From the IMG/VR virus record IMGVR_UViG_3300009952_000004: a stretch of DNA of 35,434 bases; one strand, 5' to 3'. The position numbers were made by a program, and so were the translations under genes. This DNA is from a virus. The notes under the pieces were generated by a model. The model saw nothing but the letters and a program-made list of their open reading frames with translations. It was not told where the DNA came from and made no database searches. Shown here piece by piece: positions 19,151-21,646 of the stretch. Position 1 is the first letter of the stretch; every line of letters starts with the position of its first letter.

Positions 19151-20440
19151 TTACCTCCTAAACATCTTATTGATCTTACTGATAGCCTTGTCAACGTCCA
19201 CGTCTTTTCTTGTCTGATATATCCTATCTTGCAAGGCGTAGCGTATAGCATCTATGCAGTGATTATAGCTATCTACTGGCTCGTTGATATATTCGTTTGT
19301 CTTTTTGTCTTTCTTCCAAGTATAATTTTCAAGTTCTTCAATCAGCTTCACGCATCTTTCATCTACTATCCAATCATACTGTAACAAGTATTGAATACCT
19401 TGCATAACCGAGCCAGCGCCTTTTTGAACGTCTATCACTCGTGGAATACCAAGATTTCTTAATTCTTGATTAGATTTCTTTTCAGCGCTATCTGCTCGTA
19501 TCTGCTCTTTAGCATATCCAAGTGTCTTTATTGCTTCTGCTATCTTGTCATTCGTCAAGCCTTTTCTTACAAATTCCTCAACGACATATAAACGCTTGTT
19601 TTCGTCGTCTATCCTTACATGAAGAAGTGCTGACGGGTCATTGATAAAACCATAGTCAAGGCCAAAATAAGCCGGCAAATGCGCAAATTCTTCCTTGTTA
19701 AGCAATCGTTTCTCATACTTAGGGAAAATCAGCTTGTCAAGTGTCGCAAACTCGCCCAAAGCATAGATTTTGTAATATGCTTCATTTCTATTTGCTAGTT
19801 CTTCGATATTCTCGATTGTTACTTGATCTAAAAAGCGATTATCTTTGTATGAAGTATGATAAACAACTGTATTCTTCGGCTTCTTCACAAAAAATGCGTT
19901 ATACGTCCAATTCACTTTTGAAACAGGGTTAAACATCAAGAATATCTGCTTATTCAAATGCTTCTTATCCCGCAAACGCAAAGTCAACTGTGTGTAATCA
20001 TCAAGCGTAAACTCCGATGCTTCTTCCATGACGACATCTGACACGCCTTTGATTGACTTTATTTTTTCCGGATTGTCTAACCCTTTAAAAATGAACTGTG
20101 CACCGTTTGGCAGTTCGATACGATATGCTGAATTGTTGACCTTGCACTTATCTAGCAGCTGCCAACTATCCAGGCATTGTTTCACGTCTTCAAAGATTGA
20201 ATCGTGAACCGTTGCGCCTACCTTACGCAAGAATAAAACCTTGCGTGGATGTTTCCAGTCTTGACAAGACTTAAAGACAACCTTTTGTATCACGCCATGA
20301 CTTTTCCCACTCGAAGCACCGCCATAGTGAACCTCAGTAAAGGTTGAATAGTCGTATAACTTATCATAGATATGCTTATTAAATACACGGCTTGGATAGT
20401 CAATAATGATATTGATTTTAGGTTTATTCTTCGTTATCAT
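19151..20440 (-). CDS. terL: Terminase large subunit (PBSX family)
   Basis: Walker A motif YGGASSGKS. ATG at 20440 (MITKNKPKINIIIDY) is the preferred start; the track begins at an upstream TTG (20452) inside terS. Confidence 0.9.
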   Translation of the reverse strand: MITKNKPKINIIIDYPSRVFNKHIYDKLYDYSTFTEVHYGGASSGKSHGVIQKVVFKSCQDWKHPRKVLFLRKVGATVHDSIFEDVKQCLDSWQLLDKCKVNNSAYRIELPNGAQFIFKGLDNPEKIKSIKGVSDVVMEEASEFTLDDYTQLTLRLRDKKHLNKQIFLMFNPVSKVNWTYNAFFVKKPKNTVVYHTSYKDNRFLDQVTIENIEELANRNEAYYKIYALGEFATLDKLIFPKYEKRLLNKEEFAHLPAYFGLDYGFINDPSALLHVRIDDENKRLYVVEEFVRKGLTNDKIAEAIKTLGYAKEQIRADSAEKKSNQELRNLGIPRVIDVQKGAGSVMQGIQYLLQYDWIVDERCVKLIEELENYTWKKDKKTNEYINEPVDSYNHCIDAIRYALQDRIYQTRKDVDVDKAISKINKMFRR

Positions 20441-20870
20441 CCCAATCACCAACCTTTATGTCGATTGTTTTTTGAGTGATTTCTTGCCTATCAATAAACA
20501 AGCCGTAACGCTTACCGAGGTCAACCGCTGCACTCTTTCTTGTTGATACATTCGGTTTAGCATCCATGACTTTTTGATAGCCGTCGCCGTCAAGCACTAA
20601 TAAAGGCTCTGTGATTTCTCCACGCATGACTGCCGTCAAAAATTCAAGCACTTCTTGTTGGTCTGCGACACGTTCGGACTTTAGTTTTTCTAGTTGTTCG
20701 TCTATATAGGCTTTTACGTTAGCTTTTGCAAGCAATCGACTTCCATTTGTCCTTGCGACATCATCGTTCTTAATATTCGGATAAGCCTTTTTATATGCCC
20801 TTGTAGCGTTTAATTCGATGATGTACTCATCGGCAAAAAGCTTTTGTTTTTCGGTCATCCCATTTTCCAT
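20424..20870 (-). CDS. terS: Terminase small subunit (Terminase_2 type)
   Basis: MENGMTEKQKLFADEYIIELNATRAYKKAY is typical of the family. The start is ATG 20870 or 20858, just after AAAGAGGTG. The track extension up to 21041 crosses structured non-coding RNA-like sequence and is rejected. Confidence 0.85.
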   Translation of the reverse strand: MENGMTEKQKLFADEYIIELNATRAYKKAYPNIKNDDVARTNGSRLLAKANVKAYIDEQLEKLKSERVADQQEVLEFLTAVMRGEITEPLLVLDGDGYQKVMDAKPNVSTRKSAAVDLGKRYGLFIDRQEITQKTIDIKVGDWDDNEE

Positions 20871-20887
20871 CACCTCTTTTCTATAAA

Positions 20888-20911
20888 CAAAAAAGCCAGC
20901 ATAAGCTGACT
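20888..20911 (-). terminator. Terminator-like hairpin 18 nt upstream of the terS RBS
   Basis: On the minus strand, AGTCAGC-TTAT-GCTGGCT (6 of 7 bp) is followed by TTTTTGTTT. Confidence 0.55.
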
Positions 20912-21009
20912 GATTTTCATAAGGACTTTTTAAAATGCAAGGCGACTGCAGAGCCTTGCGGAGAATCAATAGTATATTGTCTTTTTTAAATTTATTTTTT
21001 GCAGTCGTA

Positions 21010-21098
21010 TGGCGACGGTCGGAATCGAACCGACGGAGCAAAAAGTTTGTTTGGCTTACTTTGTAAAATCAATAGTGTGAAAAGAACCTTTCGTCGCC
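21010..21098 (-). ncRNA. tRNA-like element (89 nt; possible degenerate or atypical tRNA, UAC at the anticodon position)
   Basis: The minus strand reads GGCGACG...GTCGG-TTCGATT-CCGAC-CGTCGCC-A: a 7/7 acceptor stem and a canonical T arm. However, the D arm lacks GG and pairs poorly, the anticodon stem has only 3 WC plus 1 GU pairs, the variable region is 21 nt, and no CCA is encoded. Confidence 0.4.
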
Positions 21099-21190
21099 AT
21101 AAAGGGCATTACGCCCTTCAGTAAAAAATATATAAGAGTCTGTCAAACTTCGCATTATCTGACAATACCATGATACCACTTTAAAACGTT

Positions 21191-21646
21191 TCATGTTTCC
21201 GCAAAAAGTTCACTTTTGAAAGCGATTAAATCACCGCCCCGATACTGTTCAGCGAATGCAAGACACGCTCTATTCAAGTAGTCTTGAAATTTTGTTTTTT
21301 CAATCCATAACTTTTCTTGGATCTCGTAGTTTAGCATTGGTTCAGTCGCTAAATACTTATTAAACAAAATAAAGCGATATTTTGGATTGAATAAGCGACT
21401 CACTGCTTGCTCGATTTCTTCCAGTTCCCTCGAAGCATCTACACGTCTGATTGCTAGTTTCTCGACTTGCTTAGACGGGCCGTTACTTCCCCTCGGTTCA
21501 AACGTTATCAACTGCGTTACTCGTTGCTCTGGTAAGTCGCAAGCAATTTCACGAATGCGTGGATATTGTCGCAATACTTTCTTCACGTTTGAGATTGTCT
21601 TTTTCTCGTTGATTTCTTGAAATAACACTTGCGCCCCTTTCCTCAT
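21191..21646 (-). CDS. ArpU-family late transcriptional regulator
   Basis: LFQEINEKKTISNVKKVLRQY matches the ArpU N-terminal signature as I remember it. The gene sits at the last position before the packaging genes. An alternative GTG start lies at 21628, after a GGGG RBS. Confidence 0.8.
   Translation of the reverse strand: MRKGAQVLFQEINEKKTISNVKKVLRQYPRIREIACDLPEQRVTQLITFEPRGSNGPSKQVEKLAIRRVDASRELEEIEQAVSRLFNPKYRFILFNKYLATEPMLNYEIQEKLWIEKTKFQDYLNRACLAFAEQYRGGDLIAFKSELFAET

Follow-up and report, generated by a model that had tools for sequence, protein, structure and literature searches.

The principle of tRNA-like processing marks in longer transcripts is already known. The C4 RNA of phages P1 and P7 and the CI RNA of satellite P4 are small RNAs encoded in a leader, and RNase P produces them from a precursor with a tRNA-like fold. 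They show short complementarity to sites in their own leader and control downstream transcription. Their hosts are Proteobacteria, and they act in immunity, not in a late operon. For the late genes of phage lambda, the arrangement pR'-6S RNA-tR' comprises a promoter, a short non-coding leader and a strong terminator directly upstream of these genes, adjoining the late regulator gene. Plant mitochondria have t-elements, which are characterized by a conserved GGTTCRANYCC arm and an acceptor stem and serve as substrates of RNase Z or RNase P (Forner et al. 2007, PMC1920247). Like canonical tRNAs, with which they are interchangeable, they set the ends of mRNAs; the cuts were either proposed or shown (PMC1920247). 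In the present study a stretch of 35,434 nucleotides of viral DNA (IMG/VR record IMGVR_UViG_3300009952_000004), in the following called the window, was examined in the gap between arpU, the gene of a late regulator of the Ltr superfamily, and terS (positions 20,871 to 21,190). This gap contains a tRNA-like element (TLE), which according to the comparison of related phages is a genuine, selected RNA structure and not a tRNA. By analogy with the t-elements we propose, with a probability of about 0.5, that it is a tRNA-derived, cis-acting processing handle for RNase P and RNase Z heading the late transcript.

The region was assigned by BLAST to temperate phages of Streptococcus, and its genes are located on the minus strand. 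A first-pass annotation of the window had described a 5' hairpin, an 89-nt element, a further hairpin (hairpin 3) and a terminator in the gap. All four are present on the minus strand at the positions given there, and the complete leader reads as follows:

21102..21118, minus strand: 5' hairpin AAGGGC-GTAAT-GCCCTT, 3 nt upstream of the TLE
21010..21098, minus strand: TLE, 89 nt, 67.1 bits (E 6e-14) with the family covariance model R1
21098-21092, minus strand: 5' strand of the TLE acceptor, GGCGACG
21091-21087, minus strand: conserved AAAGG of the TLE, directly 3' of the acceptor 5' strand
to 21035, minus strand: unstructured insert of the TLE
21034-21018, minus strand: T arm of the TLE, GTCGG-TTCGATT-CCGAC
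21017-21011, minus strand: 3' strand of the TLE acceptor, CGTCGCC
21010, minus strand: discriminator A of the TLE
21000..21007, minus strand: box CGACTGCA (family consensus GACTRCA), 2 nt 3' of the discriminator
20960..20999, minus strand: A-rich linker with the conserved ACAATATACTATTGRTTCT stretch of subtype A
20937..20959, minus strand: hairpin 3, GCAAGGC-TCTGCAGTC-GCCTTGC, with an N9 loop complementary to the box
20889..20911, minus strand: intrinsic terminator AGTCAGC-TTAT-GCTGGCT with T-run, also called by the terminator scan, 12 nt upstream of the terS ribosome-binding site

In the family described by model R1, N-N-A-G-G follows a 7-bp acceptor, the insert is variable, the 5-bp T stem carries a TTCRATT loop, and CCA is lacking. 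The element of the window shows all of these features, and a single copy was found there with the model.

For the window alone, the tRNA-like unit is already rare. The window has one all-Watson-Crick 7-bp acceptor that directly adjoins a 5-bp T stem with TTCRANN loop, compared with 0.004 per dinucleotide shuffle (4 of 1000 shuffles), and the fold energy z-score is -2.4. With G-U pairs allowed, the chance expectation of the acceptor/T-arm unit is 0.28. Thus, the single sequence is only suggestive, and the decisive support is the comparative evidence from related sequences.

Relatives were collected in different ways. BLAST with the TLE alone resulted in full-length or partial copies in the phages Javan266, Javan336, Javan308, EJ-1, Javan311 and Javan377, each of them in a gap without annotation that precedes the terminase or late genes. 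A pattern scan of IMG/VR yielded at least 119 loci, mostly from human-associated metagenomes; 93 elements with 53 unique cores were extracted from these. Circularity was avoided by choosing 88 untruncated relatives by the downstream module alone, consisting of box and hairpin-3 loop. All 88 relatives, from phages of mitis-group Streptococcus, form seven of seven acceptor pairs and at least four of five pairs of the T stem.

The 57 distinct sequences were aligned in fixed register (alignment A2). Acceptor and T stem are 100% paired here, and four pairs show double changes. The proposed structure pairs in 93.6% of the cells, compared with 32-52% when the 3' partners were slid, and both-sided changes were counted at nine pairs (94 cells). 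The covariation score of 0.273 was reached by none of 500 shuffles (0.152 ± 0.007). For the first pair of the T stem four types were found (CG 19, UG 14, GC 12, UA 12), for the acceptor pair 6-67 three (UA 33, CG 22, UG 2). About 88 G-U cells, but no A-C cell, were observed in this alignment. Hence, the fold exists on the terS-sense strand only, which indicates an RNA and not a DNA structure.

De novo prediction with RNAalifold for 31 sequences, including the divergent Javan311/377 subtype, gave the acceptor and T helices only, with double changes in 7 of 14 predicted pairs; this third subtype contributes additional double changes. Invariant are the T loop TTCRATT and A10-G11-G12 directly 3' of the acceptor 5' strand. 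The insert has a length of 30 nt (EJ-1 type), 56-60 nt (type of the window) or about 100 nt (Javan311 type). No consensus fold was obtained for it with RNAalifold, and the minimum free energy folds predicted for the 57-nt insert from single sequences disagree among the members. The D and anticodon arms, which had been called poor before, thus have no counterpart in a consensus structure. With model R1 the other members from Streptococcus reach 57-76 bits and ordinary tRNAs at most 24 bits (test sequence of 712 kb). The examination of related arpU-terS spacers, which had been suggested along with the first-pass annotation, therefore shows that the paired positions are conserved, with compensatory changes.

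ARAGORN and Rfam searches had been suggested as well. No tRNA or tmRNA gene was detected in the window by ARAGORN, and no match at gathering score was obtained with Rfam 15, GOLLD (RF02032) included. A permissive Rfam scan of 20800-21260 gave only weak matches at chance level, namely rseX, plastid 3' UTR, tRNA-Sec and TLS-PK6. The plastid 3' UTR match is located on the opposite strand and corresponds to the reversed T arm. Among the tRNA clan (CL00001), tRNA-Sec was the best match of the TLE with 18.4 bits at a gathering score of 47. The sole match of tmRNA type was tmRNA_permuted (12 bits, E 2.9), and the family of C4 antisense RNA and P4 CI RNA was not matched at E up to 10 in the same scan.

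Like a tRNA (Rfam RF00005), the TLE consists of a 7-bp acceptor and a stacked 5-bp T stem with a T54-Psi55-C56-R57-A58 loop. A cloverleaf with D and anticodon arms which tRNA finders could recognize is absent, as are an anticodon and conserved discriminator or identity elements for aminoacylation. The reading as an atypical phage tRNA, charged and used in translation, was one of three offered by the first-pass annotation. The perfect acceptor stem and the T arm speak for it. Considering the negative ARAGORN result, the score in the tRNA clan, the lack of conserved D and anticodon arms, the variable discriminator and the insert of 30 to about 100 nt, it can be regarded as refuted for practical purposes.

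The tRNA-like domain of tmRNA is similar to the TLE in its acceptor and T arm, its reduced D-loop analogue with GG and a big insertion replacing the anticodon arm. In contrast to tmRNA, the TLE has C3-G70 instead of G3-U70 (the third acceptor pair is C-G in all Streptococcus-type sequences), no tag reading frame with resume codon and no pseudoknots. Furthermore, it is far too short and is detected as tmRNA neither by ARAGORN nor by Rfam.

The closest likeness was found to the t-elements, which are also tRNA-like folds embedded in mRNA leaders or trailers. The sequence GGTTCGATTCC at 21031-21021 corresponds to the GGTTCRANYCC T arm, and together with the acceptor-like stem it forms a non-canonical cloverleaf in a longer transcript. 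Canonical tRNAs, tRNA-Ser in IPP8 and Javan573 and tRNA-Met in Javan74, occupy the equivalent position. The t-elements belong to an organelle and the TLE to a bacteriophage, and there is no sequence relationship. The invariant AGG and the fixed neighbours (5' hairpin, box/hairpin pairing, terminator) are found with the TLE only. Cleavage, shown or proposed for t-elements, is predicted for the TLE. In comparison to C4 and P4 CI RNA, the complementary box of the window leader lies outside the tRNA-like fold, in addition to the missing Rfam match. The lambda late leader has no tRNA-like fold, and the Ltr proteins, which are not known to be antiterminators, were described as activators (PMC3753634). 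Leader tRNA genes and GOLLD/tRNA islands of phages occupy the same regulator-terS locus in relatives. The window contains neither GOLLD nor a tRNA, the TLE cannot decode, and its constant presence with or without such cargo is undescribed.

The position of the TLE is taken by genuine tRNAs in several phages. In IPP8 of S. pneumoniae the order is 5' hairpin, tRNA-Ser(gct), a 165-nt element, GACTACA box, hairpin 3, GOLLD, a tRNA-like 3' half, terminator and terS; the Rfam scores are 52.9 bits for the tRNA and 281 bits for GOLLD. Javan573 (S. suis) has 5' hairpin, tRNA-Ser, 165-nt element, terminator and terS, and Javan74 (S. anginosus) 5' hairpin, tRNA-Met, a hairpin, terminator and terS. A 'minihelix' fold in Javan166 was no better than shuffles (z -0.8) and was not used as evidence. 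From these arrangements the regulator-terS gap is a non-coding RNA island, the first unit of which is always tRNA-shaped. In the lineage of the window this unit retains the acceptor stem, the T arm and AGG only. The first-pass annotation had regarded such an element as unusual at this position. On the contrary, many temperate phages of Streptococcus regularly have a tRNA or TLE heading the gap, which had simply not been described.

Further RNAs are inserted between hairpin 3 and the terminator of relatives, among which tRNA-Trp, tRNA-Glu and an odd tRNA were called by ARAGORN. Sorted by sequence signature, 38 of 72 distinct leaders have no cargo, 15 have cargo of the GOLLD type, eight the odd tRNA, four tRNA-Trp and two tRNA-Glu; for five the contig was too short. 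GOLLD RNA was confirmed by Rfam at this place, ahead of the pre-terS terminator, in four loci with 269-281 bits:

Locus L016, 5071-5464: GOLLD RNA (Rfam RF02032)
Locus L155, 250-645, minus strand: GOLLD RNA (Rfam RF02032)
Locus L176, 3913-4308: GOLLD RNA (Rfam RF02032)
Locus L246 (IPP8), 979-1371: GOLLD RNA (Rfam RF02032)

Judged by this placement, the GOLLD of streptococcal phages is part of the Ltr-controlled late leader. GOLLD was described as 'often near tRNA islands', with levels which rise during lysis (PMC12286853).

The immediate flanks of the TLE were evaluated for the same 72 leaders. A hairpin precedes the TLE by 3-5 nt in them. Every subtype has such a 5' hairpin, 3-6 nt upstream of the TLE or of the genuine tRNA in its slot. 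Its sequence is subtype-specific, with GAGGC-TTCG-GCCTC in subtype B and a compensatory GAAGC/GCTTC in locus L103. The nucleotide at -1 of G1 is U in 65 and C in seven leaders. The discriminator varies (G 43, U 26, C 2, A 1) and is followed directly by U in 72 of 72 cases. CCA is encoded in none of them, and likewise not in the genuine slot tRNAs of IPP8, Javan573 and Javan74. With a pyrimidine at -1, U after the discriminator and no CCA, the flanks are compatible with both nucleases. The GACTRCA box follows 2-5 nt downstream of the TLE.

The complementarity of 8 nt between the box CGACTGCA (21007-21000) and the loop and edge of hairpin 3 (TGCAGTCG, 20950-20943), noticed in the first-pass annotation, was confirmed by reading the minus strand, and one compensatory change was found among relatives. 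The 6-bp core of this pairing can form in 57 of 57 sequences, and one pair covaries (A-U 47, G-C 10). Hairpin 3 itself is paired in 94% of the cells and has double changes in three of six pairs, with the stem GCAAGG/CCTTGC compared to AGAGG/CCTCT and GCAAGT/ACTTGC. Hairpin 3 and the long-range box:loop helix were close in energy when the window was folded, so the suggestion of two mutually exclusive folds holds, and the two are nearly isoenergetic. The A-rich linker between box and hairpin 3 is conserved inside subtype A; another A-rich sequence is located at that place in subtype B. In three Streptococcus genomes (L140, L155, L175) the GACTACA box is replaced by an open reading frame of about 45 aa with its own ribosome-binding site (MKQAMFNKLEDAKQFAKTVKELLCIKEPVMI…), with TLE and hairpin 3 kept.

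A homologous pre-terS terminator was found in 63 of 67 leaders, ahead of several unrelated terS families. Its stems covary (AGTCACTC/GAGTGGCT, GGTCRCAC/GTGTGGCT). One and the same leader type precedes at least three small-terminase types, and module boundaries and insertions fall exactly at the TLE 3' end. A possible antiterminator pairing of the box with the 5' strand of the terminator (GACTG/CAGTC in the window) was rejected; neither the Javan266 nor the EJ-1 type shares it. Inspection by eye of three subtypes revealed no conserved pairing to this terminator strand, and no conserved antiterminator fold involving the TLE was found.

The genes and signals around the leader are as follows:

21191..21646, minus strand: arpU, late-gene regulator of the Ltr superfamily, family I; TIGR01637 with 97.2 bits (cut-off 43.1)
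21119..21190, minus strand: presumed Ltr-binding and late-promoter region with the repeats TGGTATCA/TGGTATTGTCA (21178-21160), TTGACA (21146-21141) and TATATAT (21134-21128)
20876-20871, minus strand: terS ribosome-binding site GAGGTG, from the minus-strand reading
20424-20870, minus strand: terS, ATG at 20870, first gene of the late operon; Terminase_2 PF03592, E 1.2e-28
19151-20452, minus strand: terL, downstream of terS; Terminase_3 match

These profile matches confirm arpU and terS, as named in the first-pass annotation, as the flanking genes. The arpU product furthermore matches phrog_248, 'transcriptional activator' (E 5.5e-38). The gene upstream of the leader codes for an ArpU-type regulator in 32 loci and for a sigma-70-region-4-like regulator (phrog_36) in 52 loci; leader subtypes A and B were each found with both regulator types.

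Family I of the Ltr regulators was described in PMC3753634, and EJ-1 ArpU is among the proteins listed there. The direct repeats bound by Ltr proteins follow closely on the stop codon of the ltr gene and precede the terS promoter (Quiles-Puchalt et al., PMC3753634), and Ltr was the sole phage protein required for terS expression. Hence, the TLE is most probably located in the 5' leader of the late transcript. No consensus sigma-70 promoter was found in the gap of the window by the sigma-70 scan, so the transcription start assumed here is a putative one. EJ-1-type leaders (subtype B) carry TTGACG-17-TATATT, for which AJ609634 has a promoter annotation.

Upstream of the TLE, GTATTGTCA and (C/T)TGAYR-N6-7-TATAT motifs recur in relatives. 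The former belongs to a motif TAT(Y)AT(R)GTAT(Y)(R)TCA, located shortly 3' of the regulator stop (GTATTGTCA at 21160-21178, minus strand, in the window) and with equivalents in the loci L001, L003, L246 and L249. It is kept across leaders which differ in the regulator and in the first RNA unit and is a candidate for the Ltr operator or a core element of the late promoter. An open reading frame of 41 aa (21069-21194, minus strand) overlaps the arpU stop with ATGA and extends across promoter region and 5' hairpin into the TLE, of which it covers the first 30 nt. A protein-coding reading was rejected, because the overlapping start is not present in other ArpU-type relatives such as EJ-1 and Javan308; the frame is probably spurious.

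For RNase P, RNase Z and the CCA-adding enzyme, acceptor stem and T arm suffice as a substrate. Bacterial RNase P favours U at -1, and RNase Z of B. subtilis processes CCA-less precursors with U-rich trailers. The selected parts of the TLE are thus those of a minimal nuclease substrate, its flanks fit, it is interchangeable with tRNAs, and in relatives there is RNA cargo to excise. For these reasons the reading as a cis-acting processing handle is favoured. Of the three readings offered at first, the RNase P/Z processing signal is therefore the best supported one, the tRNA is rejected, and the antitermination leader is retained for the leader as a whole.

According to the proposed mechanism, transcription would start upstream of the 5' hairpin. 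In the transcript the acceptor stem would stack on the T arm, and the invariant A-G-G after the acceptor strand would probably dock on the T loop, giving a tRNA-like elbow. Host RNase P is predicted to cut at G1 and to release the 5' hairpin. A cut by host RNase Z 3' of the discriminator is proposed because no CCA is encoded and U follows the discriminator. The downstream RNA would then begin about 2-5 nt ahead of the GACTRCA box, and pairing of the box with the hairpin-3 loop could provide a structured 5' end. This RNA would differ among phages, being a short leader with the mRNA of terS in some and cargo (tRNAs or GOLLD, for instance) in others. The pre-terS terminator is presumed to close the non-coding part and to gate read-through into the late genes.

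Several points weigh against this mechanism. The arpU transcript may carry the TLE at its 3' end; even so, the idea of punctuation would be applicable. What a phage gains from a handle in a cargo-free leader such as that of the window is hard to see, and loss of a 5'-triphosphate hairpin normally destabilises mRNA in Firmicutes. The contact between AGG and T loop is a geometric guess. AGG could alternatively pair with a CUUUU or CC..UGU stretch 5' of the T stem, for which the support was weak and inconsistent. In the corresponding helix of nt 8-12 (ANAGG) with CUUUU or CC-NN-UGU before the T stem, A-U is exchanged for C-G once, but the helix does not hold in the Javan266 subtype and was not adopted. 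Concerning the box, the G-C cases at the covarying box:loop pair share one downstream module and thus probably represent a single evolutionary event. Its absence from L140, L155 and L175 indicates that the box:loop pairing is not indispensable.

Instead of being cut, the TLE might be required for read-through. Together with box and hairpin 3 it would then form an RNA switch or a polymerase-modifying element which decides on passage through the pre-terS terminator, with lambda pR'-6S-tR' and Q or the put RNA of HK022 as analogues. For the TLE itself this is a tentative reading and clearly a less likely one than processing. It is consistent with the intrinsic terminator between TLE and terS in 63 of 67 leaders, beyond which there is no space for a promoter, and with the mutually exclusive, nearly isoenergetic helices. 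The near-consensus sigma-70 promoter of subtype B would be active without an activator, and the terminator would therefore be the logical control point. In reporter work no read-through into terS was observed without Ltr protein (PMC3753634). However, a conserved alternative pairing which sequesters the 5' strand of the terminator was not seen by eye, GACTG/CAGTC of the window not being conserved. The replacement of the TLE by genuine tRNAs in other phages is hard to square with a sequence-specific polymerase-binding RNA. In addition, the interval between hairpin 3 and terminator tolerates cargo of up to 1 kb, and the box is dispensable in some relatives. Because of the conserved terminator ahead of terS, the antitermination reading stays for the leader as a whole. 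An excised element of about 60-130 nt could also act in trans as a tRNA mimic, either by capturing, as a stable decoy or sponge, a host or defence protein which binds the acceptor/T-arm half of tRNAs, or as a partner of GOLLD. The invariant canonical T loop and the perfect acceptor stem would suit tRNA-binding proteins, the TLE is retained in the 38 cargo-free leaders, and in others it shares its transcription unit with GOLLD, an RNA 'often near tRNA islands' (PMC12286853). The free variation of the discriminator and of several acceptor pairs speaks against the mimicry of a specific tRNA. Anticodon nucleases could not be decoyed, as there is no anticodon arm, and the insert is unconstrained in length and sequence. 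We consider a role in trans somewhat less probable than the read-through function. Taken as one proposal, the use of the tRNA shape as a regulatory device, be it for a lambda-Q-like gating of the late operon by Ltr or for titration of a host tRNA-binding or defence factor by the excised TLE, is likewise a speculative option. If gating is true, a largely constitutive promoter would yield a short terminated non-coding RNA (TLE with or without tRNAs and GOLLD) even in lysogens, and the sigma-region-4-like Ltr protein (ArpU/LtrB) and the tRNA-shaped leader would make late transcription terminator-resistant.

The presence of real tRNAs in the slot of other phages, of several further degenerate tRNA-like sequences in regulator-terS gaps and of many closely related sequences in the sample would also fit a decaying tRNA pseudogene. 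In this case the TLE would be a functionless remnant in a hot spot of tRNA insertion, conserved by recent common ancestry. This is contradicted by the covariation, with multiple compensatory and G-U changes across relatives. Three subtypes with unrelated inserts and differing stem sequences have kept 12 of 12 acceptor and T pairs, and the invariance of T loop and AGG while the remainder drifts indicates purifying selection on a sub-structure. The scores of 57-76 bits with model R1, against at most 24 bits for ordinary tRNAs, point in the same direction, and decay is thus improbable. A signal at the DNA level, such as a pac or cos site, an Ltr operator or a recombination site, is conceivable at a place which adjoins terS, where packaging sites are frequent, and module junctions do coincide with the TLE 3' end. 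The 88 G-U cells would be C-A mismatches on the opposite strand, the same leader is located ahead of at least three small-terminase types, and the T-loop consensus is without known meaning in DNA. Such a signal is therefore very improbable, ranking only above the functional tRNA.

The TLE family is absent from Rfam 15, and no description of it was found in the searchable literature. A catalogue of 10,006 anonymous viral candidate RNAs from 2023 (PMC10690425) mentions tRNA-like motifs and may include the TLE. What appears to be new is a tRNA-like mark heading a phage late operon, its stripped-down architecture and the constant module of box, hairpin and terminator combined with it, in relatives also with GOLLD. 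The TLE represents a covariation-supported RNA family at the late-gene control point of temperate phages of mitis-group streptococci, including phages of S. pneumoniae. 'tRNA punctuation' has been described for mitochondria, and the TLE suggests that bacteriophages employ it as well, to divide a composite late leader. By its position GOLLD can be assigned to a defined transcription unit which extends from the Ltr regulator gene to the terminator and is flanked by putative tRNA-like processing sites, so that its biogenesis and timing become directly testable in a tractable host. For late-leader RNA processing in streptococcal phages, the TLE is a testable handle. Leaders with TLE furthermore explain long 'empty' gaps in annotations of Streptococcus prophages, which can be annotated with model R1.

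Clear members in the genome collection belong, among the matches listed, to mitis-group Streptococcus (S. mitis, S. pseudopneumoniae, Streptococcus sp.). The genome-wide pattern scan was dominated by ordinary high-GC tRNAs, and this taxonomic range is a lower bound. A look-alike with 42 bits in model R1, GGCGAGG-ACAGG-…-GGGG TTCAATT CCCC-ACCTCGCC, was found in a metagenome-assembled genome of Muribaculaceae (JAFOYQ010000056.1, locus L212, 574-660, minus strand). It is located in a prophage-like region of 37% GC and adjoins an open reading frame for a CI/LexA-type repressor. Either convergence or a distant relationship beyond the Firmicutes would account for this sequence.

Other RNA elements were observed in the gaps of relatives. 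The conserved non-coding element of about 165 nt starts with TTTGAGYGTTTGTGTCCCAGAATGGGGTAGGCA and ends in a degenerate T arm (GRGGG-TTTGATT-CCCYC) and an acceptor-like strand. It recurs in phage leaders of S. pneumoniae, S. mitis, S. suis and S. dysgalactiae, has no Rfam match and is probably a second unannotated RNA family. Its positions are:

Locus L246 (IPP8), about 400-580: 165-nt element
Locus L249 (Javan573), about 1305-1470: 165-nt element
Locus L247 (Javan166), about 1440-1500: 165-nt element
Loci L164, L176 and L221: 165-nt element directly 3' of the TLE

A degenerate look-alike of a class-II tRNA (…GGTCTCAGAATTGGTAGA…GAGGGTTCGAGTCCCTCCCTCT), which is not called by ARAGORN, is located between the sigma-r4-like regulator gene and the leader promoter, at about 1330-1410 in L002 and upstream of the promoter-like TTGACG in L164. 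The odd tRNA mentioned above has 81 nt and lies 3' of hairpin 3 in L002 (1599-1679), L003 (1600-1680) and L004 (1597-1675). ARAGORN reported it as 'tRNA-???' with the two-base anticodon 'aa', and Rfam tRNA scores of 38-40 bits were obtained. IPP8 shows only its 3' half (…GAAACGTAGGCAGGTTCGAATCCTGTCGTTCCA), downstream of GOLLD. Thus, GOLLD may sit inside, or partly replace, this tRNA-like gene.

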